A stretch of 62,184 bases of DNA, counting the filler, from Nitrospinota bacterium (GTDB lineage Bacteria; JAUXIQ01), in the NCBI GenBank assembly GCA_030620925.1. It is 11 parts of 11 records of this genome, joined end to end, with 100 filler letters (N's around TTAATTAATTAA, not from the genome) between each part and the next. Parts side by side here need not be neighbours in the genome. Positions count along the whole stretch, not along the records: positions 23,502 to 34,058 come from JAUXIQ010000034.1; positions 34,159 to 37,496 come from JAUXIQ010000326.1; positions 37,597 to 41,632 come from JAUXIQ010000261.1; positions 41,733 to 45,410 come from JAUXIQ010000290.1; 7 more parts are not named here. The stretch is one strand, 5' to 3'. Positions 5,324 through 52,225 of the stretch are shown in pieces. A program made the translations under genes and the position numbers. The notes beneath the pieces were generated by a model, which had not been told where the DNA came from, ran no database searches, and saw only the letters and a list, made by a program, of their open reading frames with translations. Every line of letters begins with the position of its first letter. Within the stretch, counting starts at the first letter, position 1.

Positions 5324-5417
5324 ACCCCGCCCAGCGCGGGATCGCGCCCTCCCGAACCGGAGCGAAAATTTTCATTTACGCGGTGAATTTATGATAGCTG
5401 ACTTTTTCATCATTGCC

Positions 5418-29621: not shown

Positions 29622-32495
29622 TTGCTCAAGAAGATACTCATAAAAGGGGCGAGAGAGAATAATTTAAAGAACATAGACCTTGAGCTCCCCAGAGGAAAGT
29701 TTATAGTCTTCACCGGCCTCAGCGGGTCGGGGAAATCATCCCTGGTCTTCGATACTATTTATGCGGAAGGCCACCGACGATACATCGAATCCCTCTCCAC
29801 CTATGCCAGGCAGTTCCTGGAGCGCGTGGACAAACCGGATGTAGACTACATAGAAGGCATTTCACCCGCCATCGCCTTCGAACAGAAGAACCCCGTCAAA
29901 CATTCCCGCTCCACAGTGGGCACCGCCACCGAAATTTACGACTACCTGCGTCTCCTCTTTTCCAAGGTGGGGAAAATAGAATGCCCCCGGTGCCTTAAGG
30001 AGGTTAAGGCAGACACCGTCAGTCAGTCAGTGGATACCCTCCTGCAAAAGCACCAGGAAGCCCGCATCTACATAACCTTCCCCTTTTACTATACCGACCG
30101 GGCGTCCGCACAACAGTTCCTGGATGACCTGCCGGCGCGCGGGTTTATACGGGTGATGACCGATGGGGAGGTTGGAGTCCTGAAGCCCAGAGGGCGGGAG
30201 GTTGGAGTCCTGAAGCCCGAAGGGCAAGAGGTTGGAGTCCCGCGTGTGGCGGGAAAGCCCAGAGGGCGGGAGGTCTATGATCTGTCCCAGGGCCGATACC
30301 CGCCACTCGATGGTGGTGGCCGGCTCCTGGTGGTGGTGGACAGGCTGATGGTTCGAGAGAGCGCCGCCACTCGTTTGGCCGATTCATTGGAGACCGCTTT
30401 CCGGGAGAGTAAAGGAGCGGCCGTGGTGCGCTTCGTTGACGGCCCCGACCTCCGCTTCAACCAGGAGTTCACCTGCAACGATTGCGGCAGTGAGTTCGAG
30501 CGGCCCACCCCCAACTTCTTTTCCTTCAACAGCCCCTATGGAGCATGTCAGGCCTGCGGCGGGTTCGGGAACATACTGGATTACGATCTGGACCTCATCA
30601 TCCCCGACAAAGATAAGAGCCTCGCCCAGGGCGCCATCGAGCCCTGGAACATGCGCAAATACAGATCGCATTTTCAGCGGGAATTGAGGAAACTGGCCGA
30701 GGCCAAGAAGGTGGACTTAAATAAACCCTACCGCAAGCTCAGCAAGCGCGCACAGAAGTTAGTCCTCTATGGTGCCAAGGGACATATAGGCGTGTTCCCC
30801 TTCTTTGAAAGGCTGGGAACTAAAAAATATAAGATGTTCATACGAGTGTTCACCCGGAAGTACAAATCGATCAAAGACTGCCATGAATGCGAGGGCACGA
30901 GGTTGCGGCGGGAGGCACTGTGGGTCAAGATCGGCGGCCGCACCATAGCTCAGGTCACCAGTATGACGGTGACCGAGGCCCGGGAGTTTTTCGCCGCTCT
31001 CAAGCTGTACCGTATGGAGCGTGAAATAGCCAGAGACGTACTGAAGGAAATAGAGTCCAGGCTCGAGTTCATGTACTACGTGGGCCTGGATTACCTCACC
31101 CTGGACCGCCTCACCCGCACCCTCTCCGGAGGGGAGGCCCAGCGAGTCAACCTGGCCAACCAGTTGGGAGCCAGACTCACAGGAACCCTCTACATCCTCG
31201 ATGAACCGACCGTCGGGCTGCACCCCAGGGATAACCGCCGACTGCTTGACATCCTCAAAAAACTGAGCGACGCCGGAAACACCGTCCTGGTGGTGGAGCA
31301 CGACCGGGAGGTGATCTCCACCGCCCAGCACCTGGTGGACATGGGGCCCGGCGCCGGTGCGCAGGGGGGACAGGTAGTCTACAGCGGCACCCTTAAAAAT
31401 TTTCTTAAAACGTGCGATTCACTCACCGCCGGACACCTCAAAGGCAAGCTAACCATACCCCTGCCCACCACGAGGAGGGAGACCAACGGCCGGTATCTGT
31501 CCATTAAAGGCGCAAAAGAGAACAACCTCAAGGGCATCAACGTCCGCATACCCTTAAACACCTTCACCTGCGTCACTGGAGTCTCCGGAGCGGGCAAGAG
31601 CACCCTCATCCACGATACGCTCTACAGAGCGCTCGATCGCATCTACCATCCTTCAGGGGAGCGGACGGGCATGTTCGACGTTATCACCGGCTTCGGATGG
31701 CTCCGGGACGTAGCGCTCCTGGACCAGCAGCCCATCGGCAAGACCCCCCGCTCAAACCCCATCACCTACATCAAGAGCTACGACGCGGTGCGAAAGCTCT
31801 TCTCCGAAACGCCCGGCGCCCGAAGGCAGGGTTACGAGCCTCGACATTTTTCTTTCAACGTGACGGGTGGCCGCTGCCCGGAATGCGACGGCAACGGGCA
31901 CCAGAAAATCGAGATGCACTTCATGGCCGATATATTCGTTCGCTGCGAGGAATGCCAGGGCAGCAGGTTCAAGCGGGAGGTGCTGGAAATAAAATACAAG
32001 GGCCTCAACATAAAGCAGGTGCTGGACCTGACGGTGGACCAGGCGCTGGAATTTTTCACCGGCCCCAATCAGCTTATGGAAAAGCTGGCCCTGTTTCAAG
32101 AGGTGGGTCTGGGCTATCTGAGGCTGGGGCAGCCCGCCACCACCCTCTCCGGCGGCGAGGCCCAGCGCCTGAAGATAGCCGCCGAGCTGAGCAGCAAGAA
32201 ATCCAAAGGCGTCCTCTACATCCTGGACGAGCCCACTACCGGTCTCCATTTCGAGGACGTCAAAAAACTCCTGGCCGTCTTGAACAGTCTGGTGGACCGG
32301 GGGAACACCGTCCTGGTGGTGGAGCACAACCTCGACGTAATAAAGACCGCCGATTACATCCTCGACCTGGGGCCGGAAGGAGGCGAACAGGGGGGCTACC
32401 TCGTGGCCGAAGGGACCCCCGAGCATCTGGCCCAGGTGGAGGCCTCGCATACCGGCCGCTTCCTCAAGGAACTTCTCCAAAAAGAAAGTATTTAA
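29622..32495 (+). CDS. uvrA: Excinuclease ABC subunit A with a 34-aa repeat-derived insertion
   Basis: GARENNLKNI, GLSGSGKSS, two LSGGEAQR signatures, zinc fingers. Confidence 0.95.
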   Translation: MLKKILIKGARENNLKNIDLELPRGKFIVFTGLSGSGKSSLVFDTIYAEGHRRYIESLSTYARQFLERVDKPDVDYIEGISPAIAFEQKNPVKHSRSTVGTATEIYDYLRLLFSKVGKIECPRCLKEVKADTVSQSVDTLLQKHQEARIYITFPFYYTDRASAQQFLDDLPARGFIRVMTDGEVGVLKPRGREVGVLKPEGQEVGVPRVAGKPRGREVYDLSQGRYPPLDGGGRLLVVVDRLMVRESAATRLADSLETAFRESKGAAVVRFVDGPDLRFNQEFTCNDCGSEFERPTPNFFSFNSPYGACQACGGFGNILDYDLDLIIPDKDKSLAQGAIEPWNMRKYRSHFQRELRKLAEAKKVDLNKPYRKLSKRAQKLVLYGAKGHIGVFPFFERLGTKKYKMFIRVFTRKYKSIKDCHECEGTRLRREALWVKIGGRTIAQVTSMTVTEAREFFAALKLYRMEREIARDVLKEIESRLEFMYYVGLDYLTLDRLTRTLSGGEAQRVNLANQLGARLTGTLYILDEPTVGLHPRDNRRLLDILKKLSDAGNTVLVVEHDREVISTAQHLVDMGPGAGAQGGQVVYSGTLKNFLKTCDSLTAGHLKGKLTIPLPTTRRETNGRYLSIKGAKENNLKGINVRIPLNTFTCVTGVSGAGKSTLIHDTLYRALDRIYHPSGERTGMFDVITGFGWLRDVALLDQQPIGKTPRSNPITYIKSYDAVRKLFSETPGARRQGYEPRHFSFNVTGGRCPECDGNGHQKIEMHFMADIFVRCEECQGSRFKREVLEIKYKGLNIKQVLDLTVDQALEFFTGPNQLMEKLALFQEVGLGYLRLGQPATTLSGGEAQRLKIAAELSSKKSKGVLYILDEPTTGLHFEDVKKLLAVLNSLVDRGNTVLVVEHNLDVIKTADYILDLGPEGGEQGGYLVAEGTPEHLAQVEASHTGRFLKELLQKESI
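30168..30269 (+). repeat. Three tandem hairpin-bearing repeat units (30+30+42 bp) inside uvrA
   Basis: GAGGTTGGAGTCCTGAAGCCCAGAGGGCGG-type unit x2; third unit expanded by a palindrome. Confidence 0.9.
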
Positions 32496-32535
32496 CCACA
32501 AAGACACGATAATATGGAACCACGGATGAACACCG

Positions 32536-32901
32536 ATAAGCACAGATGAAACCCAATTAAATCGAATTACCGAGAAGATAATCGGCTGTGCATACACTGT
32601 GAGCAATGGGTTGGGCACAGGCTTCCTGGAGAAGGTTTATGAGAATGCACCTTAAAAAGGAAGGCCTCAAGGCGGCCCAGCAGCATAGCATTCAGGTCGT
32701 TTACGACGGCATTGTCGTTGGCGATTATGTTGCGGATTTATTGGTTGAAGAACTTGTTCTTGTGGAGCTGAAAGCAGTCAAAGAGCTGGATGAGGTCCTC
32801 TCGCCCAATGCCTGAATTATTTGAAGGCATCCGATTTTCGTATTTGTCTGCTGCTGAATTTCGGCAAGCCTAAGGTTGAGATTAACCGCATCATTACTTA
32901 A
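32536..32901 (+). pseudogene. GxxExxY-family (PD-(D/E)XK-like) pseudogene
   Basis: ITEKIIGCAYTVSNGLGTGFLEKVYENA, frameshift near 32650, ADLLVEELVLVELKAV, frameshift near 32800, AQCLNYLKAS...LLLNFG; start codon degenerate. Confidence 0.85.
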
Positions 32902-32918
32902 CTTAACATTTTATAAGT

Positions 32919-33056
32919 ATTTGTGTCTATCCGTGTTCATCTGTGTTCATCTGTGGTTAAATATGTTCATCCGTGGTTCCTATTCCGTGTTCATTTGTGT
33001 TCATCTGTGGTTCCTATTTCCTGTTTATCCGTGTTCATCCGTGTTCATCTGTGGTT
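32919..33056. repeat. Tandem ATC(C/T)GTGTTC / ATCTGTGGTT repeats; inverted copy at 32518-32547
   Basis: Several ATCCGTGTTCATCTGTGGTT-like units directly visible. Confidence 0.85.
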
Positions 33057-33201
33057 CTAAATCCTTTTTTCAAATTGACGTTGATTAAACCAATCAAATG
33101 TGAGACAAATATTGTGTTCGGTTAATAGCGCCGGCTCCGGAGCCCTACAGGGGCTCTGTTTTTATGGAATCAAAGAAAATAGTTGCCGTCGGGAGGAGAG
33201 A

Positions 33202-34058
33202 ATGCAGAATCGGGCTGTCGCCAACCGTAAAAAGGCGGGAAGGAAAACCGGAGCCGGAAAACCGGCCCTGGAATATATCTTTCATCCGGGTTCAATAGCC
33301 ATCATAGGGGCTTCCCCCAACCCCAGGAACCAGTCCAATATGTTCCAGCGGGAGTTCAAGGAATTCGGCTTCAAGGGGGATGTCTACCTGGTCAATCCCG
33401 GGTATCGGGAGGTTCTGGGCCAGCCCGTGTATCCCTCGCTGTCCGACGTGCCGGGCGACGTGGATCACGTCATCTCATGCGTGCCCGCGAGTTTGGTGCC
33501 GGAGCTGGTAGAGCAGTGCATAGAAAAGAAAGTCAAGGTGCTGCATCTCTATACGGGCCGCATGGCCGAGGCGCGCCTGGCGGAGAAGAGGAAAATGCAG
33601 GAGGACGTGGTAGCCAGGGCCCGGTCGGCGGGCATACGCGTCATCGGCCCCAACTGCATGGGCCTCTATTACGCACCTGAAGGGTTGACCTTCCGCCTGT
33701 CGCTCCCCAAAGAGATGGGAACGATGGGTTTCATGTCCCAGAGCGGGGGCATGTGCGCCGACCTGGTCTACAAGGGCTGCGGCCGGGGGCTGAAGTTCAG
33801 CAAGGTCATAAGCTACGGCAACGCATCAGACCTCAATGAGTGCGACTTCCTGGAATATTTCATGGAAGACCCCGAAACCGAAGTCATCGCCGCTTATATA
33901 GAAGGCGTTAGGGGTGGGAAGAAGTTTTTCAAGCTGGCCCGGGAAGCGGCCAGGCGAAAACCGCTGCTCATTCTCAAAGGCGGCCGCACAGACGCCGGAA
34001 AACGGGCCGTGGCCTCGCATACAGCCTCTCTGGCGGGGGTGGACAACGTTTGGGACGC
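33202..34058 (+). CDS. ADP-forming acyl-CoA synthetase alpha/CoA-binding protein (3'-truncated)
   Basis: IAIIGAS, IGPNCMG, SQSGG, SYGN, ASHTASLAG. Confidence 0.88.
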
Positions 34059-34158
34059 NNNNNNNNNNNNNNNNNNNNNNNNNNNNNNNNNNNNNNNNNN
34101 NNTTAATTAATTAANNNNNNNNNNNNNNNNNNNNNNNNNNNNNNNNNNNNNNNNNNNN

Positions 34159-34341
34159 GTGCTCCTCCAGGACGGCGTTTACCTCGATACCACCCAGCTA
34201 TCGGGAGCAGAGGTCTACGCCATATCAGAGGACATCGAAAAGAGGGGTCTTCAGGAGATTGTCCCGTCCTCGGTGAAGAGGATAGGCTACGACGAACTGG
34301 TGGACCTCATCGTGGATAACAAGGTCTATAATTTCGCTTAA
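34159..34341 (+). CDS. DsrH/TusB-like sulfur-relay protein (5'-truncated)
   Basis: LLQDGVY...EDIEKRGL...IGYDELVDLI. Confidence 0.8.
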   Translation: MLLQDGVYLDTTQLSGAEVYAISEDIEKRGLQEIVPSSVKRIGYDELVDLIVDNKVYNFA

Positions 34342-34368
34342 CCGAAAAGCGGGGGAGGGTCGCCAACC

Positions 34369-34617
34369 ATGTCTCTAAGAGAAGCACGGATCGCAAAGAC
34401 GGTGGACATCAAGGGCAGGATTTGCCCCTACACCATCATCGATACCAGGGATGCGCTGAAAACGGTAAATAACGGTGATGTAATCGAAGTGCTGGTGGAC
34501 TACGAACCGGCCGCCCTGGTGACCATCCCCAACTTTTGCGATAAGAAAAACTACCCAATGGAAACGGTGGAAGAAGAGGGCACTTGGCGGTTGTATATCA
34601 AGAAGGAAGAAGATTAA
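34369..34617 (+). CDS. tusA: TusA-family sulfur carrier
   Basis: VDIKGRICPYT motif, 82 aa. Confidence 0.85.
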   Translation: MSLREARIAKTVDIKGRICPYTIIDTRDALKTVNNGDVIEVLVDYEPAALVTIPNFCDKKNYPMETVEEEGTWRLYIKKEED

Positions 34618-34620
34618 ACC

Positions 34621-36207
34621 ATGACCGCCTGGCGCTTGTTGGATACCGGCGCCCGCAGCGCCGCAGAAAACATGGCCCTGGACGACGCCCTGCTCAAAGC
34701 CAGAAGCGGGGGGGCCGTGCCCAACACGCTGCGGTTCCTGCAGTTCTCTCCCCCCGCGGTGCTGGTGGGTTACCACCAGGATGTTGAGCAGGAGGTCAGG
34801 GAAAATTACTGCCGCGACCGGGGAATAGATATAAACCGCCGCCTCACCGGCGGCGGCACTATCTACTTCGACCGGTCGCAGCTGGGTTGGGAGCTCATAG
34901 CCTCCAAGGAAGATTTCGGCCTGGGCCGCGTCCTCTTCCCATTTTTCGAAAAGATATGCGGGGCCCTCATCGCGGCGCTGGCCGAGCTCGGTATCCATGC
35001 GCAATACCGCTTCAAGAACGACATCGAGGTGGGTGGAAGGAAGATATCGGGTACGGGAGGCGTGGAGGAGGCTGACGCCTTCCTCTTCCAGGGCACACTG
35101 CTCATGGATTTCGACGTGGAGTCCATGCTCTACGCCTTGCGGGTGCCCACCGAGAAGCTCAAGGCCAAAGAGATAAGCTCCGCCCGGGATCGGGTGACCT
35201 GCCTCAAGAACGAGCTGGGCCGGCTCCCGTCACTGGACGACGTTAAAGCGGCTATCGCACGGGGTTTCAGCAAAACTTTCGGGGTGGAGTTGGAGACCGG
35301 AGGTCTTCATCCCCTGGAAGAAGAACTTTTCAGAGAACACCTGGACTACTACACCTCGGAGGACTGGGTTTACGCGCAGGCCGCTCCCTCCGGAGGGCAA
35401 CTGACGCTCCGTTCCGCTCGGAATACCCCCGGCGGGCTCGTTCGCACCGCCGTCTCTTACGACCCGGAGAAGGAACGGCTCAACAGCGTCCTCATTACCG
35501 GGGATTTCTTCGCTTTCCCCGCCCGCACCATCTACGATCTCGAGGTCTACCTCAAAGGGACCCCCAGGGATACGATCGCGGAACGCATCAGGGAATTTTT
35601 CAATACCACCGATTGCCAGGTGCCCGGCGTCCCACCCGACCAGTTCGCCGCAGCCATCGACCAGGCCCTGATCAAAGCCGACTATATGGGAATGGGCCTC
35701 CTCCATCACGAGGCGGACGCCGTTTTCACCATCAATACGAAACTCGACGAAATAGCGCGAATTAATACCCTGCTTATACCATACTGCTCAAAACCGACGG
35801 ACTGTGAGTTCAGGAACGAAAAAACCTGCAGCTTGTGCGGGGGATGCGGGGTGGGCGAGCTGTACGCAACGGCCCAACGTCACGGGGTGGAGCCGGTCTC
35901 CATCGTTAACTTCGAAGACCTGATGGCTACCCTGAGAAAACTCGAAAACAGAAAGGCCGGCCCCTACCTGGGGAGCTGCTGCGAGGCGTTCTTCATCAAA
36001 CACGAGGAGGACTTCAGGTCCATCGACCTGCCCGGCGTACTGGTGGATATAGACAGCTCCACCTGCTACGACCTGGGCCTTGAGCGGGAAGCCAAACGAG
36101 GGACTTTCGAAAACCAGACCCGGCTCAAGACGGAGCTGATAGCCAAACTCCTTCAACTTAAAGGGGGCTCGAGGGCCGAATCGCCATGGGTGCAACGCGC
36201 GACCTGA
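34621..36207 (+). CDS. Lipoate-protein ligase (sLpl(AB)-like) with Cys-rich DUF116-like C-terminal domain
   Basis: NMALD, RRLTGGGTIY, NDIEVGGRKISGTG, ITGDFF; PYCSKP..C..C..C..C, GSCC. Confidence 0.85.
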   Translation: MTAWRLLDTGARSAAENMALDDALLKARSGGAVPNTLRFLQFSPPAVLVGYHQDVEQEVRENYCRDRGIDINRRLTGGGTIYFDRSQLGWELIASKEDFGLGRVLFPFFEKICGALIAALAELGIHAQYRFKNDIEVGGRKISGTGGVEEADAFLFQGTLLMDFDVESMLYALRVPTEKLKAKEISSARDRVTCLKNELGRLPSLDDVKAAIARGFSKTFGVELETGGLHPLEEELFREHLDYYTSEDWVYAQAAPSGGQLTLRSARNTPGGLVRTAVSYDPEKERLNSVLITGDFFAFPARTIYDLEVYLKGTPRDTIAERIREFFNTTDCQVPGVPPDQFAAAIDQALIKADYMGMGLLHHEADAVFTINTKLDEIARINTLLIPYCSKPTDCEFRNEKTCSLCGGCGVGELYATAQRHGVEPVSIVNFEDLMATLRKLENRKAGPYLGSCCEAFFIKHEEDFRSIDLPGVLVDIDSSTCYDLGLEREAKRGTFENQTRLKTELIAKLLQLKGGSRAESPWVQRAT

Positions 36208-37247
36208 TAGTTATAGGCTGTGGACCGGCAGGCGCCTCGGCGGCGCTGGCAGCCGCCCGACGGGGGTTGGACGTACTCGTCCTGGAAAAGAAGAGCGCCG
36301 TGGGGAGCCCCGTGCGCTGCGGCGAATACGTCCCGGCGCTGATCCTGAAAGACATCCCGCAGGTGGACGGTTTCGTTGCGCAAGCCGCTCAAGGACTGGA
36401 GGTATCCCTCCCCTCAGGGGAAGTATTGAGGGCGTCATCGCCGGGCCTGATGATAGAGCGGGACCGGTTCGACAGGGCCCTGGCTCAGGCGGCAGTGGAT
36501 GCGGGAGCGGAAATCATCACCTCTGCACAGGTTACCGGGATATTGAACGATAGAGTGCGTGTAACTCTCCGCGGCGAAGAGATCAGTTGCCGGGGAAGGG
36601 TCATCATAGGGGCCGACGGACCCCGTTCCCTGGCGGCGCATGCCGTGGGTGCGGGAAACGGCTCACTGGCCGTCGGTCTCCAGGAACGCCTCCCGCTTAC
36701 ACGGAGTCTTGACCATGCGTTAATCTATTACCATCACCGATACGAAGGGGGATACGCCTGGGTGTTTCCCAGAGGCGCACTGGCCAACGTGGGGCTCGCC
36801 CTGGACCGCAGGCAGAGTAAAAACCTCCAGGCTCTCTACAGGGATTTTAAACGCTGCCTTATAAAAAAGGACATCATATCATCAGAACACCCGGTATACA
36901 AAACCTGCGGCCTGATACCCGCTGCGGGGTTGAATGAAAAAGCCCAGGCCGGAAACCTGCTGCTGGCGGGAGATGCGGCGGGAACCACAAACCCCCTGAC
37001 CGGTGCGGGAATCTCCCCCGCGGTCATTAGCGGGAAGCTTGCAGGCGAACTGGCCGCCGAAGCGGTGAATAGCGGCGATTTATCGATTCTGAACGTTTAC
37101 CGGGAAGAATGTGCGATGGCACTTCCCCTGGAAAGGACCACCATCATAAAAAAAGAAATCGATTCCTACTGGGGCACACCCCGCGGCGACGCCCTGTTGA
37201 AAAACTACTGGGATGGTTTTAAATCGCAGACGGACTGGGGAAATTGA
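36186..37247 (+). CDS. Geranylgeranyl-reductase-family flavoprotein (LipT-like by context)
   Basis: GCGPAG, VRCGE, GADG, YAWVFP, GDAAG..NPLTGAGI. Confidence 0.82.
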   Translation: MGATRDLIVIGCGPAGASAALAAARRGLDVLVLEKKSAVGSPVRCGEYVPALILKDIPQVDGFVAQAAQGLEVSLPSGEVLRASSPGLMIERDRFDRALAQAAVDAGAEIITSAQVTGILNDRVRVTLRGEEISCRGRVIIGADGPRSLAAHAVGAGNGSLAVGLQERLPLTRSLDHALIYYHHRYEGGYAWVFPRGALANVGLALDRRQSKNLQALYRDFKRCLIKKDIISSEHPVYKTCGLIPAAGLNEKAQAGNLLLAGDAAGTTNPLTGAGISPAVISGKLAGELAAEAVNSGDLSILNVYREECAMALPLERTTIIKKEIDSYWGTPRGDALLKNYWDGFKSQTDWGN

Positions 37248-37491
37248 AGGAACCTTTGAAAAAGGTTCCTTCAGGGACACCCCGGGGGAAACCTTTCTGG
37301 AGAAAGGGTTCCCCCGTACCCCCTTCCCAAGACTTTTGTGACTGGTAAAACTTAAACGTGTCTTTAAATAACTCATATATACGAAATAAAGGCATATCAA
37401 ACGGAAAAGTTTTAAAAGTACTTGATTGAACCTTATTACAATAAGGTTCAATCAGGCGCTCCGGAGTAGCCAGCCCTGGCTGGCTACTCCG
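37245..37491. repeat. Cluster of four long palindromes at a contig end
   Basis: Hairpins at 37245-37273, 37284-37315, 37423-37454 and 37462-37491. Confidence 0.7.
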
Positions 37492-37596
37492 TGACANNNN
37501 NNNNNNNNNNNNNNNNNNNNNNNNNNNNNNNNNNNNNNNNTTAATTAATTAANNNNNNNNNNNNNNNNNNNNNNNNNNNNNNNNNNNNNNNNNNNN

Positions 37597-38168
37597 AGAA
37601 AATTGAAAAAGTCTACAAAGCCGACGAATACTCGGCCATCGCCATAGCCGGGGCGGCCGGGCCCTGCATGGAAATGGTCAAGCTCTTTCAGACCGAACTC
37701 GAGCATTATGAGAAACTGGAGGGCGAGACGCTGGCCATAGAAGGGAAGGCCAACAAGCTTGCCCAGATGGTGAACACCAACCTCCCGGCGGCCCTCTACG
37801 GGTTGGTGGTTATCCCCATATTCGCCGGCTTCGACGTAAAGAAAGGCGACGGACGAATCTTCAGGTATGACATCACGGGAGGCAGATACGAGGAAGAAGA
37901 GTTCTTCGCCACCGGCTCCGGCGGCAAAGACGCCAGAAATTCCCTCAAAAAATTGTACCGGAAAGGCTTATCCGGAAATGAGGCGGTCAAAATAGCGCTG
38001 GAGGCCTTGTTCGACGCTGCCGAAGAAGATTTAGGCACAGGAGGACCCGACCTGATCAGGGGGATTTTTCCAATAACCAAAACCGTAACCGAAAAAGGAG
38101 TGCTGGATGTTCCCGAGTCGGAGATCAGGGAACATTGCCAGACCATCCTGGACTCAAGACGGGTATGA
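37597..38168 (+). CDS. prcB: 20S proteasome beta subunit (5'-truncated)
   Basis: IEKVYKADEYSAIAIAGAAG, ELEHYEKLEG, GSGG..AR, AAEEDLGTGGPD. Confidence 0.93.
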
Positions 38169-38172
38169 ACCG

Positions 38173-38862
38173 ATGAGCATGCCATTTTACGTAGCACCGG
38201 AGCAGCTTGTACAGGATAAGGCGGAGTATGCCCGAAAAGGCATCGCCAAGGGCAAGTCCATCGTAGCCATGGAATACGTGGACGGACTAATGATGGTCGC
38301 CGTCAATCCCAGCACATACCTCAACAAAATCTCCGAAATCTACGACCAGATAGCCTTCGCCGGAGTGGGAAAATTCAGCGAGTTTGAAAACCTGCGCAAA
38401 GCCGGCATACGCTACGCCGACCTCAAGGGGTATACCTACAGCCGCGAAGACGTTACCGTTAAATCTCTGGCCAACGCCTTTTCCGAAGCCGTGGGCAACA
38501 TCTTCGTGCGCGACATTAAACCCCTTGAAGTGGAAATAATTGTCCTGGAGGTGGGACCGACTTCAGAAGGCAACGTGATCTACCGGGTACAATTCGACGG
38601 AGCCATAAGCGACCACAGAGACTTCGCCGTAATCGGAGGCCAGTCAGACCGCATCGAAGCCTATCTGAAGAACAACTACCGCCCGAACCTCTCCGCCCGG
38701 GAGACCCTGAAACTTAGCGTCCAAGGGCTGGAAACCGCTGAAGACAACGCCATCGAGTCTCAGGGCCTGGAAGTGGGGGTGCTGGATAGAAATTTTCCGG
38801 GCAGAAAATTCAGAAGGTTCACCAGCCAGGAAACGACTTCTACGCTCTCGAACGATGCGTGA
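38173..38862 (+). CDS. prcA: 20S proteasome alpha subunit
   Basis: MPFYVAPEQLVQDKAEYARKGIAKG, KISEIYD, YSREDVT. Confidence 0.95.
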   Translation: MSMPFYVAPEQLVQDKAEYARKGIAKGKSIVAMEYVDGLMMVAVNPSTYLNKISEIYDQIAFAGVGKFSEFENLRKAGIRYADLKGYTYSREDVTVKSLANAFSEAVGNIFVRDIKPLEVEIIVLEVGPTSEGNVIYRVQFDGAISDHRDFAVIGGQSDRIEAYLKNNYRPNLSARETLKLSVQGLETAEDNAIESQGLEVGVLDRNFPGRKFRRFTSQETTSTLSNDA

Positions 38863-38906
38863 TCCCCAAAGAGCGAGTAGCTACGCACTATGAGTAAAGG
38901 CACGCC

Positions 38907-40295
38907 ATGAAAAAGAGAATATACGGGCTGGAGTGCGAATACGGTATAATCTATACCTCCAACGGCATAAAAACCCTTCCCGTGGAAAAGGTGGTGAGAT
39001 ACCTTTTTGAGAAACTCATCACCACCGAGAGTTTCCTCAACGTCTTTCTGGAAAACGGCGCCCGAATCTACCTGGATACCGGATGCCACCCCGAATATGC
39101 CACGCCCGAAGTCACCAATCTCATGGACCTCCTCCGATACGATAAGGCGGGGGAAAGGTTGATGCAGGACCTGTTGCATCACGCCGAGGGACGGCTCAGA
39201 GATACGGGCATGACCGGCAATCTTTCTATTTTCAAAAACAACACCGACTTCTCGGGAAACTCATACGGCTGCCACGAAAACTACCTGGTGGAGCGCACCT
39301 CGGATTTCTATCACATGGCAGAACAGCTCATCCCTTTCCTGGTTACCAGACAGGTATTCGCAGGGGCGGGGAAAGTGGTGCAGACCAGATGGGGCACCGA
39401 CTATTTCATCTCCCAGAGAGCGGAACACATCTGCCACACCATATCCGGCACTACCACCAACGACCGCAGCATTATCAATACCCGCGATGAGCCTCACGCC
39501 GATAAGGAAAAATACCGTCGCCTGCATGTCATCGTGGGCGACTCCAACATGTCCGAATACACCACCTATCTGAAGGTGGGCACCACTGATATAGTGCTGC
39601 AGATGATCGAACAAGGGTTCATCAAACAGGATTTCGCCATCAGAAACCCGGTAAAATCCCTGCGGGACATCTCCCACGATGTCACCTGCAAGAAAAAGCT
39701 GAGACTGGATGACGGGCGCAAGGTCTCCGCCGTGGAATTACAGAAGGAATATCTGGAGCTGGCCCACAAATTTTTCGCCATGCAGCGGCCCAACCCCGTC
39801 ATTAATGACATCCTCGACAAATGGGAATACGTCCTCCACCATCTTGATCAGGAGCCTATGGAGCTCCACAGGGAAATAGACTGGGTCATCAAGAAACAGT
39901 TGATCGAAAACTTCCGCACCAAAAAGGACATCCCCTGGAACAGCCATCGCATCCTCATGTTGGACCTGCAGTACCACGACATCAGGGAAAACAAGGGCCT
40001 CTTCTATAAACTTGAAGAGAATGGACTGGTTGAGAGAATCCTCAACGAGGATGAGATATTGCAAGCCATGGTCGACCCTCCAACGGACACCAGAGCCAAA
40101 CTGCGGGGAGATTTCATTAAGATGGCCAAGCGGCTGAACATCAGGTACGACCTGGATTGGAGCTACATCCGATTGGGGAGCCTCCTGAACATCCGCATGA
40201 TGTGCAAGAACCCCTTCCAGAATAATATAGATAAACTGACAGAGCTTCAGCGGAAACTCGAGAGGTCTCCGTCAAAGCGGTTCTTTACGCTCTGA
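38907..40295 (+). CDS. pafA: Pup--protein ligase (PafA-like)
   Basis: RIYGLECEYG, NGARIYLD, HPEYATPE, SYGCHENY, INTRDEPHAD, DLQYHD; no apparent Dop loop; located after prcA. Confidence 0.88.
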   Translation: MKKRIYGLECEYGIIYTSNGIKTLPVEKVVRYLFEKLITTESFLNVFLENGARIYLDTGCHPEYATPEVTNLMDLLRYDKAGERLMQDLLHHAEGRLRDTGMTGNLSIFKNNTDFSGNSYGCHENYLVERTSDFYHMAEQLIPFLVTRQVFAGAGKVVQTRWGTDYFISQRAEHICHTISGTTTNDRSIINTRDEPHADKEKYRRLHVIVGDSNMSEYTTYLKVGTTDIVLQMIEQGFIKQDFAIRNPVKSLRDISHDVTCKKKLRLDDGRKVSAVELQKEYLELAHKFFAMQRPNPVINDILDKWEYVLHHLDQEPMELHREIDWVIKKQLIENFRTKKDIPWNSHRILMLDLQYHDIRENKGLFYKLEENGLVERILNEDEILQAMVDPPTDTRAKLRGDFIKMAKRLNIRYDLDWSYIRLGSLLNIRMMCKNPFQNNIDKLTELQRKLERSPSKRFFTL

Positions 40296-40403
40296 TGGGG
40301 TTTGGGGAACCTCTCTGCGATAGACCGCCCCACCCTGCTTAGGGGAGGAGCGCGTTGTATAAAGCTCTTAGTTTAATATTCCAACAGTAAAATCAGGTAA
40401 GGC

Positions 40404-41504
40404 ATGTCTGAAAAACTGAACGTAGCCGTCATCTTCGGGGGACAATCGGGGGAACACGAGGTCTCTCTGGCATCCGCTGCTTCCGTCATAGAAGCATTAA
40501 ATCCGGCCAAATATAACGTTATACCCATCGGCATCACTAAGAGCGGGGGTTGGCTCACCTCAGGCGACGCCATGAAGAGGCTGCTAGCTGCTCCGGAAGA
40601 CGACCCGAAGACAACCACAAAACCGGCTGAAGAGAAAGAATTATACCTGCTGCCCCTTGAAAAGGGGTCGGGAAAGGCGAACCCTTCCAACACGCTAGAC
40701 GTGGCATTCCCGGTGCTCCACGGCCCCTACGGAGAAGACGGGACTGTTCAGGGTCTCCTGGAGCTTGCCGGTATCCCATACGTGGGCGCGGGAGTCCTGG
40801 CATCATCAGTGGGTATGGACAAAGAGAAGATGAAAACGCTCTTCGCCCACAGAGGTCTTCCCCAGGTAAATTACACCTCTTTCCTGAGAAAACATTGGGA
40901 AGCCGACGCCATCAAGATAGTGGAAAATATCGAGGAGGAAATAGGCTATCCCGTTTTCGTAAAACCCTGCAACCTGGGCTCCAGCGTGGGCATAAGCAAA
41001 GCTAAGGGGCGCCGTGAGCTGAAGCAATCAGTCAATCTGGCCTGCGGATACGACCGCAAAATCATAGTGGAAGAGGGTCTCGAGTGCCGGGAAGTGGAAT
41101 GCAGCGTCCTGGGCAACGACGAGCCGCAGGCATCTCTGGCGGGAGAAATTGTCCCCAAAAGAGAGTTCTACGATTACGAGGCCAAATACACCGAGGGCCT
41201 CTCCGAAATAATCATCCCCGCACCCATTGACCAAACGCTGATGACCAGAGCACGGAAAATAGCCCTGGAGGCGTTCAAAGCCATAGACTGCTGCGGGATG
41301 GCCCGTGTAGACCTGTTTCTTGAAAAAGACAGCAAGAACATTTATCTAAACGAAATAAATACTATCCCCGGTTTCACCTCCACCAGCGTATACGCCCGCC
41401 TGTGGGAAGCCACCGGAATAGGATACCCACAACTGCTGGAAAGGCTCATCGAGCTCGCCCTGGAGCGCCACCAGGAAAAAAAGCGCTCCCTACCCCCCGC
41501 CTGA
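40404..41504 (+). CDS. ddl: D-alanine--D-alanine ligase
   Basis: GGQSGEHEVS, LHGPYGEDG, GSSVG, NEINTIPG. Confidence 0.95.
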   Translation: MSEKLNVAVIFGGQSGEHEVSLASAASVIEALNPAKYNVIPIGITKSGGWLTSGDAMKRLLAAPEDDPKTTTKPAEEKELYLLPLEKGSGKANPSNTLDVAFPVLHGPYGEDGTVQGLLELAGIPYVGAGVLASSVGMDKEKMKTLFAHRGLPQVNYTSFLRKHWEADAIKIVENIEEEIGYPVFVKPCNLGSSVGISKAKGRRELKQSVNLACGYDRKIIVEEGLECREVECSVLGNDEPQASLAGEIVPKREFYDYEAKYTEGLSEIIIPAPIDQTLMTRARKIALEAFKAIDCCGMARVDLFLEKDSKNIYLNEINTIPGFTSTSVYARLWEATGIGYPQLLERLIELALERHQEKKRSLPPA

Positions 41505-41533
41505 CACCATTCCTTCTTAGCACAGCCCTTTTT

Positions 41534-41561
41534 GTAGAGACAATTCATGAATTGTCTCTAC
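41534..41561. repeat. GTAG-family REP palindrome
   Basis: GTAGAGACAATTCATGAATTGTCTCTAC, perfect palindrome. Confidence 0.75.
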
Positions 41562-41732
41562 GTGAGAATGCGGTTTTCACGTATATTATTTTTAATCGCG
41601 GCATCTTGCCCCCGCCGCCCCCGCGTAGAAGCNNNNNNNNNNNNNNNNNNNNNNNNNNNNNNNNNNNNNNNNNNNNTTAATTAATTAANNNNNNNNNNNN
41701 NNNNNNNNNNNNNNNNNNNNNNNNNNNNNNNN

Positions 41733-42382
41733 ATCTCCGGTATGAGGATAACGTCCGCGGCGGCTGCAACGCCGGAGTTAAGAGCGATCCAGCCGGCGTA
41801 TCTCCCCATGAGCTCCACCACCATGACCCTGTCGTGTGCCTTTGCTGTTGAATGAAGCTTCTCGATGGCTTCGGTGGCGGTGGACACCGCGGTGTCGAAA
41901 CCGAAAGTTATCACCGTTTCCGAAAGGTCGTTATCAATGGTCTTGGGTACGCCTACGACCGGTATACCCTTCTCATAAAACTTCTGGGCGATGCTAAGGC
42001 TTCCATCCCCCCCTATGGCCACCAGTGCGTCCAACTTCTTTTTGTGGAAATTTTCCACAACTTTGTCGGATATGTCCTTTGTCTTGAGGCGGCCACTCTT
42101 CGTATCGTAAGGATACTCGAAAGGGTTCCCCCTGCTGGCCGCGCCCAGTATCGAGCCGCCCAGGTTGGTGAGCCCTTCCACTTCGGCGGCGGTAAACCTG
42201 CGCAGACCTTTGAGATCGATCAAGCCCTGATAGCCGTGAGTTATTCCGTAGACTTCCCAGCCCTTTTCCAGGCCGCATAGGACCACGGCCCGTATCACCG
42301 CGTTGAGTCCGGGGGCGTCGCCGCCACCGGTATTGATTGCGATGCGCTTAATTTCTTTCGGTCTGGGTTTTTTGCTGCTCAC
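41733..42382 (-). CDS. pfkA: 6-phosphofructokinase (3'-truncated)
   Basis: GGGDAPGLN, GGDGS, PKTIDND, ELMGR. Confidence 0.92.
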
Positions 42383-42494
42383 CGTCCGGCACTCCGTCGC
42401 TCTCCAGTATGGATATGCGGCTCAACGAGTGAGAATACATTAAAGGGGGGATTTTTACAAGCGGTGTCCATACTCGCTGGTGAGGGCGTTTGCC

Positions 42495-43718
42495 TCAACT
42501 GAAGACCATGCCTGCGAAGCTAACCGTGGCGTCTTCATCGGGCCACTGAGAATATTTGAGGAGTTTTCCCCGACCGGGTTCGATAACTTTCAACATCGTA
42601 TAGATGGATGGAAAGCCGCAGACGCGGCGCCTGTCTTTATCGCGCGCTATGTGGCGGAAAAGGCCGACTTCGTCACCCGCTTCAACCAGTTGGAGCAGCT
42701 CGGTGTCTTCGTTGGCTATTATGCTCAGGCTGGCGGAGTCGATCGGTTCCTGGTCCCCGAACCTGGGACCCATGTGACTCAAATCTGCGCTGGCGATGAC
42801 ACAGACCTTTTTCCCCGAGCCGGTTATATAGTCTCGCAAGGCGTCGATGAACTGTTTCACTGTCGGGTCCTGTTCGGGCTCGACGCCTTCGTCTACATAC
42901 TGGTGGAAAGAGCCGCACAAAACGGGCAGAATGGCAACGTTATCAGCATCCCGGCAGGCGAATTTTATGAATACCGCCTGCAGCTCCACAGAATGTTCGC
43001 CCCGATGGGTCAGCTCATCATCGAAAATTCCAGTGCCGCACTTATCCGAGAGCACCTGGACGAGCTCTTTGTCGGTTTCAAGCGTTCCCAGGGGAGTCTC
43101 GAAATCCTTGGCGGTCAAGACGTAGGGGCCGCCGGTAGCCACGTGCGCCGTGCCCAGTATTACGTACACCTCGGCGCGGGGGCGCGCCATTATTTCTTTG
43201 TAGACCCAGGCGTAGGTGTGGCCACCGCGGGGGTAATCGATATGGGGGACGACTGCCCCTTTAATTGTTTCTCCGGGGATGGAAGTTGCTACGTCGCCCG
43301 GCCCTTCTTGATGGTTGAAGTAACCGGCAAGCACTTCTTGGAGCTGCTCCGGCTCTGCAGGATAACTCTTTCCCGCCAGCGCCGCTTCCCGCACAGTGGA
43401 GGCTCTGAACTCGTTCAACAGCTCCTCTTTATGGGCCTCAAAAAGCTCGCTCTCCAGGAACAGGTTGTCATCCAGTTGTTTAATCAGCTCTTCTATGTTT
43501 TCGCTGTGTATGAGCTCCCCGGCCTGCCGCATGAACTCCGCCTGAATATCCCTAAGCGAGTGTTGGCCGTCGAATAATCTTATAATGTACAAGGTTTCCA
43601 TGGGCATGAAGACCACCTTGTCGGTGTAATTGAAAGTATCCCTCATGCACAGGACCTTCTGGCCGCTTACCTCGGCAGGAAAGACCTCTATGCCGGGTCT
43701 CAGTTTAGGGTTTTCCAT
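42495..43718 (-). CDS. AmmeMemoRadiSam system protein B (Memo-like) with N-terminal extension
   Basis: AGKSYP, PHID, EHSVELQ, SADLSH, CG. Confidence 0.88.
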   Translation of the reverse strand: MENPKLRPGIEVFPAEVSGQKVLCMRDTFNYTDKVVFMPMETLYIIRLFDGQHSLRDIQAEFMRQAGELIHSENIEELIKQLDDNLFLESELFEAHKEELLNEFRASTVREAALAGKSYPAEPEQLQEVLAGYFNHQEGPGDVATSIPGETIKGAVVPHIDYPRGGHTYAWVYKEIMARPRAEVYVILGTAHVATGGPYVLTAKDFETPLGTLETDKELVQVLSDKCGTGIFDDELTHRGEHSVELQAVFIKFACRDADNVAILPVLCGSFHQYVDEGVEPEQDPTVKQFIDALRDYITGSGKKVCVIASADLSHMGPRFGDQEPIDSASLSIIANEDTELLQLVEAGDEVGLFRHIARDKDRRRVCGFPSIYTMLKVIEPGRGKLLKYSQWPDEDATVSFAGMVFS

Positions 43719-43839
43719 GCTCTTCTTTCCTTATTTAATTTGCATGATGCCTCATATTATTTTCACCCCCACCTTAAATCCTCCCCAACGCAACGCCCCG
43801 CGGCAGTCGGGACTACGCACAGAATGACAATACACGAAA

Positions 43840-44021
43840 TAGGGGCGGTCCCGCGTGTGGCGGGATCAAAACCGCCCTATCGGGGCGTATCGCAGTACGC
43901 CCCTACGATCGCGCCTGGAAGGCGCTCCTACGTAATTAAACTGCTATAGGAGCAGCATTCCGTGGCAGGTTGGACTGCACCTGCAAAATGAAAATGTAGG
44001 GGCAACCCTTGTGGTTGCCCT
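43840..44021. repeat. Cluster of GTAG-family REP elements
   Basis: TAGGGGCGG..ACCGCCCTA, GGGGCGTATCGCAGTACGCCCCTAC, ATCGCGCCTGGAAGGCGCTCCTAC, GTAGGGGCAACCCTTGTGGTTGCCCT. Confidence 0.85.
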
Positions 44022-51991: not shown

Positions 51992-52225
51992 AAAACCATC
52001 CACCGGTGTCTACTTGGTCACGCATGTCCCGCCATGGCGGGATCCCGAACCCCGTCACTTGCGGCGGGGGTACTCAATTTCTACCAAAAAAATAAAAATT
52101 TATGGCCCTTTCAGGGTATAACTCTATTGTTTTAGGGTATATTGACTTATCCGTTATCGGTAATAACCATTAGTTTAACGAAAGAGCCCTTATCAATTAA
52201 GGAAATTCCAAAAGGAGAGCGACCG

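Follow-up and report, generated by a model that had tools for sequence, protein, structure and literature searches.

The closest described relatives of the repeat studied here are the repetitive extragenic palindromes (REPs). The repeat is a 17-nt hairpin, TCCCGCGTGTGGCGGGA, which occurs both inside uvrA and inside an REP-like palindrome in a 62,184-nt stretch (hereafter, the window) of a metagenome-assembled genome (MAG) of a Nitrospinota bacterium (GCA_030620925.1). Two super-families of REPs, GTAG and CGTC, have been distinguished, and REPs have been reported as nested in small palindromes and as lying within repair genes, among them uvrA of Thioalkalivibrio and the two uvrA genes of Opitutus terrae; such copies were often the only intragenic REPs of a species, and REPtrons can be missing (PMC3733652). 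Long REPs of the hairpin-bulge-hairpin type have a second stem joined via a bulge, REP inserts occur within tnpAREP genes, and IHF, gyrase, and Pol I have been reported as REP-binding proteins, with a further role of REPs in stabilizing mRNA (PMC6006769). In the system of REP doublets forming hairpins and REP-associated tyrosine transposases (REPIN-RAYT), REP hairpins are amplified within a genome, which is thought to depend on a single-copy Y1 enzyme (PMC3116915). Rickettsia palindromic elements (RPEs) are palindromic repeats lying in frame within genes whose proteins likely still work (PMC3733652), and SDR5, one of the small dispersed repeats (SDRs), is said to insert at HIP1 palindromes (PMC5861425).

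The window consists of contigs C11–C21 of the fragmented MAG joined by N spacers and is not one molecule; positions below count along it. The MAG (G000) comprises 445 contigs, none shorter than 2.5 kb, with 2.50 Mb, 54% G+C, and 89% completeness. It was compared with G001, the one other genome of the phylum in the compared collection, which belongs to a different (sister) genus; with G031–G034, four unrelated hairpin-rich genomes assembled better than G000; and with 20 public runs from 13 studies of marine sediments and cold seeps that contain parts of the window. The reading that we prefer, at a probability of roughly 0.55, is that the hairpin is a module of REP-class repeats, many of them GTAG-headed, and not a free-standing element. 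The hairpin shows two features of this class, being a short palindromic stem-loop (20–40 bp or less) that is dispersed, mostly extragenic, and present in high copy number (143–167 sites). REPs of two-tier build, and insertion of REPs in uvrA, were known before, and the composite of REP and hairpin also occurs in unrelated genomes.

The SDRs of Nostocaceae, reportedly described by Elhai and colleagues in 2008, are said to be 21–27 nt long, nested in repeats, and absent from orthologous positions. Compared by description with these cyanobacterial repeats, the module found here is likewise nested and is absent from orthologous positions in the case of the uvrA copy only, but it is a plain hairpin of 17 nt tied to GTAG REPs. 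IS200/IS605-type elements have left and right subterminal hairpins that bracket a segment, depend on TnpA, and insert without loss of target bases. A miniature element derived from them was considered and rejected: there is a single hairpin, it takes the place of 3–10 host bases, and a search of the MAG for Y1_Tnp gave no match.

Like the GTAG REPs, bacterial interspersed mosaic elements (BIMEs), and long REPs described by Di Nocera 2013 (PMC3733652) and Quentin 2018 (PMC6006769), the repeats of G000 are GC-rich short palindromes that number in the hundreds, are clustered, and lie mostly outside genes. Shared features are also several families per genome, GTAG/CTAC heads on many, a two-tier build of basal stem, bulge, and apical stem as in long REPs, and occasional in-frame inserts in DNA-repair genes, uvrA included. 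They are unlike GTAG REPs in that one apical stem-loop is common to several unrelated families, as a minority variant in most, and in that GTAG stands at the hairpin's own foot in only 12 of 139 hairpins. As for a REPtron, a RAYT was found neither in this MAG nor next to the hairpin in G031–G034 (20 loci). Amplification of an REP-derived hairpin within a genome is shared with REPIN-RAYT (Bertels and Rainey 2011, PMC3116915), and G001 has a REPtron, but no cognate RAYT was found for this hairpin. An in-frame palindromic repeat within a gene is shared with RPEs; these are commonly in genes (PMC3733652), whereas here, of 143 copies, one was verified as a coding insert, and its way in was a minisatellite. 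An earlier note on this DNA knew of no named system for the hairpin, which does not hold, REPs and BIMEs being a named class and uvrA inserts of REPs having been published (PMC3733652). A literature search with five repeat strings gave no match; the figures and Additional files of PMC3733652, with its 24 GTAG families, may list this stem.

The exact 17-mer was found at 30238–30254 in uvrA (C15) and at 43849–43865 between genes on a different contig (C18). The earlier note had reported this identity, two variants, and a third uvrA repeat longer by net 12 nt (peptide PRVAG), and all of these were confirmed, as was a shared continuation: three of the four window sites read GCGGGATC. The features concerned are as follows.

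29622–32495, plus strand: intact uvrA open reading frame (ORF) of 957 aa; solved UvrA chains matched at E 2e-41.
30168–30269, plus strand: 102-nt in-frame insert of three tandem units (30, 30, and 42 nt) with direct repeat GAGGT(T/C) bounds, between DGEV and YDL.
30238–30254, no strand assigned: hairpin TCCCGCGTGTGGCGGGA in uvrA unit 3, standing for TCCTG of the clean unit, net +12 nt.
43795–43933, no strand assigned: BIME-like cluster of REP-type palindromes surrounding the hairpin, including GGGGCGTATCGCAGTACGCCCCTAC and GATCGCGCCTGGAAGGCGCTCCTAC.
43839–43880, no strand assigned: two-tier REP, ATAG-GGGCGG-T-(hairpin)-A-TCAAAA-CCGCCC-TAT, with basal stem, 3′ bulge, and apical stem.
43849–43865, no strand assigned: second identical 17-mer (sequence match), the apical stem-loop of this two-tier REP.
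52027–52042, no strand assigned: variant TCCCGCCATGGCGGGA with a 4-nt loop, of a different family, abutting GGGGTTCGGGA, a T-arm-like repeat.
5325–5341, no strand assigned: variant CCCCGCCCAGCGCGGGA near the end of contig C11, a duplicate of C142:4122.

As DNA, the bare hairpin has a 6–7-bp stem and a 5-nt loop (−6.7 kcal/mol, z −3.7), and the two-tier REP, about 42 nt long, folds at −14.3 kcal/mol (z −4.2). The palindrome words of the surrounding cluster rank among the commonest 12-mers of the genome. The 43839–43880 repeat had been taken for an REP split by a micro-element; it is better described as a two-tier REP of GTAG type, and the same composite is present in other phyla and in G001.

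The motif greatly exceeds chance expectation. Within the window, CCCGC-N4-5-GCGGGA gave seven strand matches (four sites) against 0.12 expected, and seven was reached in none of 100 shuffles. Genome-wide, CCCGC-N5-GCGGG was counted at 167 sites, where 5-mer frequencies predict 9.0; the runner-up among 5-bp stems reaches 45 sites, and the inside-out form GCGGG-N5-CCCGC has 6. The stricter YCCCGC-N5-GCGGGR has 143 sites against one for the reversed pattern, a count that includes about five duplicate pairs with near-identical long flanks from redundant contig ends (for example, C11:5326/C142:4122 and C62:4209/C68:368). Both the excess over chance and the strong amplification of the hairpin family are borne out. 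Thirty-four of the 143 sites lie less than 300 nt from a contig end (15 expected), so unassembled copies are likely, and the true number is probably higher.

The conserved core is R-Y-CCCGC-G[G/T]N[A/T][G/C]-GCGGG-R-Y (17–19 nt), outside which the flanks diverge. Of 159 sites, 78 are closed by T..A and 38 by C..G, and five loops (GGAAG, GTGTG, GGCAG, GGAAC, and GGCAC) account for 77 of the 159. Among same-contig neighbor pairs, 22 of 43 lie within 300 nt and 14 within 150 nt. Several other identities were rejected. An intrinsic terminator lacks its T-run here (T at +17 to +20 after the stem start in 54, 23, 19, and 12 of 159 sites, respectively), a CRISPR array was ruled out on the spacing of the sites, and de novo fold-back at each site was ruled out by stems and several loops that are identical between sites. 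In viral contigs, the hairpin gave 17 scattered single matches without clustering and no sign of a viral source.

G000 is rich in REP-like palindromes, many of them with GTAG...CTAC ends, and the hairpin is found within several families of these. When paralogues were matched by exact flanks, forms with and without the hairpin were obtained for families A, B, D, E, and F and for the repeat unit of uvrA. The families and their filled and empty forms were as follows.

Family A, GTAGGGGCGGGTTTSAAACCCGCCCCTAC: GTT in place of the hairpin, 25; with the hairpin, 1.
Family B, GTCATTCTGAGCGAAGCGAAGAATCTCGCC: CGAAG in place of the hairpin, 24; with the hairpin, 6.
Family D, GTAGAGACAATTCATGAATTGTCTCTAC: AAT in place of the hairpin, 30; with the hairpin, 1.
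Family E, GTAGGAGCGGCATCTTGCCGCGA: TCTTG (18) or TCCTG (6) in place of the hairpin; with the hairpin, 1.
Family F: GTC in place of the hairpin, 5; with the hairpin, 1.
uvrA-type unit: TCCTG or CCCTG in place of the hairpin, 4; with the hairpin, 1.
Family I: TCGCGCCTGGAAGGCGCTCC.
Family G: GTAG-TCCCGCG-NNN-CGCGGGA-CAGGCGCGA, in which the right arm of family I is retained and GTAG abuts the hairpin.

With one mismatch per flank allowed, 33 of 165 sites had a paralogue with a short gap in the hairpin's place, and the hairpin counts rose, for example to 10 of 50 in family B. Within its hosts the hairpin occupies the GTAG-proximal arm or a position near the apex, and it replaces 3, 5, or about 10 host bases (the last in the step from I to G), with no target duplication. 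These filled and empty forms show transfers of the module into other hosts with replacement of 3–10 bases and without target duplication. Families C and G were seen solely in the hairpin-bearing form. At least six further base pairs can form between the two flanks in 98 of 141 copies, against 57 of 141 with swapped flanks. A flank built of 14-mers present at least four times was found at 59 of 141 copies but only at 132 of 5000 random places (2.6%); 10- and 12-mers were uninformative because their background counts were too high. A rough flank classification placed about 107 of the 143 copies in a recognizable family.

GTAG abuts the hairpin in 12 arms and lies 5–7 nt upstream, at the foot of the outer stem, in 22 arms (139 sites; about 0.6–0.9 expected per distance), and most copies have no GTAG within 9 nt. 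A fixed GTAG distance as the signature of an enzyme was ruled out, the spacing being 0, 5, 6, or 7 nt according to host family. The families tend to have variants of their own: in D the loop mostly has 3 nt, and in C the closing pair is C..G. Orientation and 3′ bulge do not vary among the 13 A-type composites inspected, a uniformity that fits a propagating subfamily better than repeated independent insertion. At C154:2041, C149:2589, C292:9071, and C274:2152, the left and right flanks come from different families; recombination between hairpins in neighboring repeats would explain these chimeras. The earlier note was right that the hairpin lies inside other hairpin repeats, many of whose paralogues are hairpin-free, but most copies are probably better read as propagated composites.

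Comparison with the sister genus indicated which state is older. Family B (CATTCTGAGCGAAGCGAAGAAT) gave 32 strand matches in G001, the same number as in G000, and family A (GGGGCGGGTTTSAAACCCGCCCC) has 17 sites in G001 and 43 in G000, whereas G001 has only 12 hairpins (control, 2) against 143. None of the hairpin loops of G001 is among the five commonest of G000. Because G001 contains A and B with few hairpins, the host repeats are older and the hairpin expansion is specific to the G000 lineage. One G001 hairpin is a family A composite, so this composite predates the G000/G001 split. Family A without the hairpin was also seen in two unrelated genomes, G005 and G010 (10 and 3 sites).

The composite is more widespread still. 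A scan of one genome per species with the pattern GGGCGGTCCCGC-N5-GCGGGAT gave 59 loci; in 14 of these an outer stem is completed, no more than 14 nt away, by an arm like CCGCCC, and six of the 14 have a GTAG foot. The 14 were mostly from Thermodesulfobacteriota and “delta proteobacterium” MAGs, with two from Patescibacteria, one from an unclassified “bacterium” MAG, and one from a Caulobacteraceae MAG; two Zixibacteria loci did not pass the filter for the CCGCCC-like arm, and the remaining loci look like chance matches in GC-rich genomes. Five genomes were followed further. Four, all unrelated Thermodesulfobacteriota or “delta proteobacterium” MAGs, had 160, 218, 103, and 80 hairpins against controls of 2, 1, 1, and 5, respectively, and the fifth had 4 against 6. 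The REPs of G031 read cgtaggggcggTCCCGCGTCCCGCGGGAttacgtccgccc and tagggcgcacgTCCCGCGAAACGCGGGAcgcccctac, with the same two-tier design as the window's copy at 43839–43880. The composite GGGCGG-T-CCCGC-N5-GCGGG-AT..CCGCCC is thus found in other phyla, with one copy in G001, and these matches indicate that the hairpin is not peculiar to this organism.

The uvrA copy provides the one case in which the absence of the hairpin from an orthologous position was established, in G001 and in the strain of run X2, so that empty orthologous sites, which the earlier note had named as a test, were found for this copy. Unit 3 of the insert is 42 nt long and encodes V-PRVAG-K, whereas units 1 and 2 encode VLK; relative to the clean units, TCCTG has become TCCCGCGTGTGGCGGGA, a change equivalent to a single substitution and the addition of 12 bases. 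The uvrA of G001 reads DDEV-YDL, with all 102 nt absent. In a comparison with UvrA structures, 50 residues here correspond to 16 in solved UvrA, in what is presumably the UvrB-binding region, and a 126-residue UvrA fragment chain also aligns just downstream of the insert. A 6443-nt contig of run X2, from a 99%-identical strain in another study, differs at 15 of 1429 aligned nt and joins 30182 to 30255, skipping 72 nt; it has exactly one clean 30-nt unit and lacks the hairpin. In run X1, two short contigs (30224–30292 and 30231–30292) that differ mutually at a few bases carry the hairpin into unique downstream uvrA sequence; this run may be the source sample of the MAG and therefore gives no independent support. 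In runs X4 and X7, no contig spanned the hairpin, which counts neither for nor against it. The public runs are the strongest evidence that the uvrA copy is recent.

The 30-nt unit itself (GAGGTTGGAGYCCTGAAGCCCRRAGGGCRG) was found at two places, both in G000 only: three times in uvrA and twice in tandem at C129:5324–5383. It was not found in 30 other genomes and had no matches in viral contigs, and its copy number differs between near-identical strains (one against three). Both arrays are bounded by GAGGT. The C129 array lies in an intergenic spacer of a region with long ORFs, and its final GGAGGT stands just upstream of the ATG of the next ORF, in the position of a ribosome-binding site. A second, shorter uvrA-like gene was seen at C339:2285–2869 (open frame of 864 aa), and G001 likewise has two.

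Under the preferred reading, the hairpin forms the apical stem-loop of composite palindromes in this genome, and most of the roughly 143 copies probably derive from amplification of these composites as whole REPs. In addition, the module itself was transferred to new hosts on at least about six occasions, namely into the apex or the GTAG-proximal arm of families A, B, D, E, and F, into family I to give family G, and into one unit of a 30-nt minisatellite that was already in frame in uvrA. The copying step may act on extruded single-stranded hairpins, either by cleavage and joining through an REP-associated Y1 enzyme of RAYT type or by template switching during replication, two routes to which we give about equal weight. 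Constant ends in unrelated hosts point to a structure-specific activity on single-stranded hairpins, and the loss of host bases, the resemblance of TCCTG to TCCCG in two hosts, and the chimeras point to template switching. The uvrA copy would survive because the 12 nt added on balance leave the frame intact and because it probably lies in a surface part of the protein.

Several results weigh against this reading. Thirty-six of the 143 sites fit no family on either side in the rough flank classification, and most nested copies are without a GTAG of their own, as the 12 of 139 given above reflect. Replacement of 3–10 host bases is unlike insertion of the IS200/IS605 type. A profile search with PF01797 (Y1_Tnp) gave no match in G000 while 6 of 14 control genomes were positive, and a Y1 protein of G001 had no match in G000 at E up to 10; this absence proves little, because an 89% complete assembly of this kind loses small repeat-bracketed genes. 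Among 14 ORFs lying between hairpin pairs of G000, there was no nuclease or transposase: 12 were housekeeping genes (HSP20, CoaE, ABC ATPase, and the like) and two had no Pfam match. In G031–G034, 20 of the 40 Y1 loci were examined (±1.5 kb) without a T..A-closed hairpin, one of them having CCCCGC..GCGGGG about 880 nt away, and inverted repeats do not flank the only Y1 gene of G031. These negatives from four better assemblies are harder to dismiss than the absence from G000. In favor of the preferred reading, G001 does have Y1 genes, one of them forming a classic REPtron between inverted GGGGCGGCATCTTGCCGCCCC REPs (L054, G001:C20, 1360–1920), in which a 154-aa Y1_Tnp gene lies between inverted AATAGGGGCGGCATCTTGCCGCCCC and GGGCGGCAGGATGCCGCCCCTATTAA repeats that resemble family E of G000. 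Against it, the hairpin was missing from all 44 metagenome loci with relatives of this RAYT (best identity, 46–51%), a result that bears nothing on the enzyme of G000 itself. The link to an HUH enzyme (RAYT/IS200-like) suggested in the earlier note accordingly found no counterpart in the MAG, between hairpin pairs, or beside the hairpin in G031–G034.

If no dedicated enzyme existed, template switching or gene conversion alone could account for the copies, with the nascent strand jumping between hairpins and recombination making the chimeras. The replacement of 3–10 host bases without target duplication agrees with this, as do the four mixed-family chimeras, the closeness of 22 of the 43 same-contig neighbor pairs, the lack of an enzyme gene found linked to the hairpin, and the state of two unrelated hosts, family E and the uvrA unit, which had TCCTG, one base off the TCCCG of the hairpin. 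However, junction similarity of this kind is absent in families B, A, and D, the same ends T-CCCGC..GCGGG-A recur in hosts that share no donor flank although homology-guided conversion should drag variable lengths of flank, and amplification of the same stem across several phyla is left unexplained, so that we regard this explanation as unlikely. Selection for a functional site, which would bind a host protein or stabilize or terminate transcripts and be kept by selection rather than by copying, seems to us highly improbable. It is consistent with an invariant stem and variable loops, with an almost wholly extragenic distribution, with the abundance of the stem in unrelated phyla, and with the protein binding and mRNA stabilization reported for REPs (PMC6006769). 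Yet the invariance of the stem is partly a product of the search pattern, no T-run follows the hairpin, a scan of the whole window at Rfam gathering thresholds gave no match, function hardly accounts for copies in uvrA and in other selfish repeats, and identical 17-mers imply copying.

The 17-nt hairpin could instead be an autonomous micro-element, smaller than any described, that enters hairpin loops and is moved in trans by a dedicated single-stranded DNA enzyme. The identical 17-mer in such unrelated contexts as uvrA and an A-type REP, the constancy of its ends over at least six host families, an expansion that is lineage-specific relative to G001, and a near-identical strain without the uvrA copy all point that way, and amplification in other phyla without Y1 genes beside the hairpin leaves room for another enzyme. 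On the other hand, the A composites share one orientation and asymmetry (13 of 13) and predate the split, so independent insertion is unnecessary for most copies; hairpin variants tend to be family-specific (the 3-nt loop of D and the C..G pair of C); the X2 contig lacks whole units, and no strain difference of the hairpin alone was seen; and no candidate enzyme was found. We consider such an element quite unlikely, and we put a shade lower still the bolder version in which bare TCCCGC-N5-GCGGGA would be the unit of mobility, the smallest bacterial mobile DNA yet, spread across phyla and pasted by a non-RAYT enzyme. The claim of a new kind of element in the earlier note was thus too strong, while it was right about a nested, amplified hairpin that has recently varied in uvrA.

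If the hairpin is an REP module as we prefer to read it, another REP system is added in a phylum represented by two genomes in the compared collection, and a stem-loop apparently exchanged among unrelated REP families would bear on the origin of REP diversity. Its amplification in several phyla without an adjacent Y1 gene would leave the mobilizing activity open, and the uvrA insert would be a further example, one that varies between strains, of a published, unexplained tendency of REPs toward uvrA and other repair genes. The same REP sequences, A and B, recur in G000 and G001, and A also in unrelated lineages.

Other possible coding copies were surveyed in G000. A stop-free frame of at least 150 aa surrounds 38 of the 143 sites; a Pfam scan covered uvrA and 22 sites in 20 ORFs and left out 15 sites in ORFs of 157–205 aa. 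In one of the 20 ORFs, an aldehyde dehydrogenase (Aldedh), the site lies inside the domain; it is probably native sequence, to judge from a profile match with nothing added and from an unusual loop. The hairpin precedes the first domain in eight ORFs, and 11 have no Pfam match. Only in uvrA was an insert within a coding domain verified, so in-frame entry into genes, as proposed earlier, holds for uvrA with its net 12 nt and was the sole case among the ORFs scanned.

The remaining observations concern the assembly and relatives of the hairpin. Near-exact mutual repeats occur at several contig ends of the MAG (C11 end/C142, C62 end/C68, C85/C283, and C67/C134), so that the bin contains redundant or strain-variant pieces, and breaks between contigs coincide with REP clusters. 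In practice, REP repeats break assemblies, and in-frame leaders with them can mislead gene callers. In a Thermodesulfobacteriota MAG (L198, G031:C4:92200–92560), two hairpins about 150 nt apart lie in a stretch resembling coding sequence. On an unrelated AT-rich metagenome contig (L091, 250–1120), a Y1 gene stands between long palindromes, CAGTCGCCAGCCTT-CCCGCC-TGTC-GGCGGG-AAGGCTGGCGACTG, whose tip is a near relative of the 17-nt hairpin. The variant at 52027–52042, with relatives on C74, C280, and C343 and in G001, belongs to a family (52000–52070) with a CCCGCC-N2-4-GGCGGG hairpin and a GGGGTTCGAAC/CCCC stem-loop resembling a tRNA T-arm, followed by CACTTGTGGCGG-like sequence. This family was seen in both G000 (C74:1461, C280:403, and C343:1001) and G001, and at loci L021 and L025.

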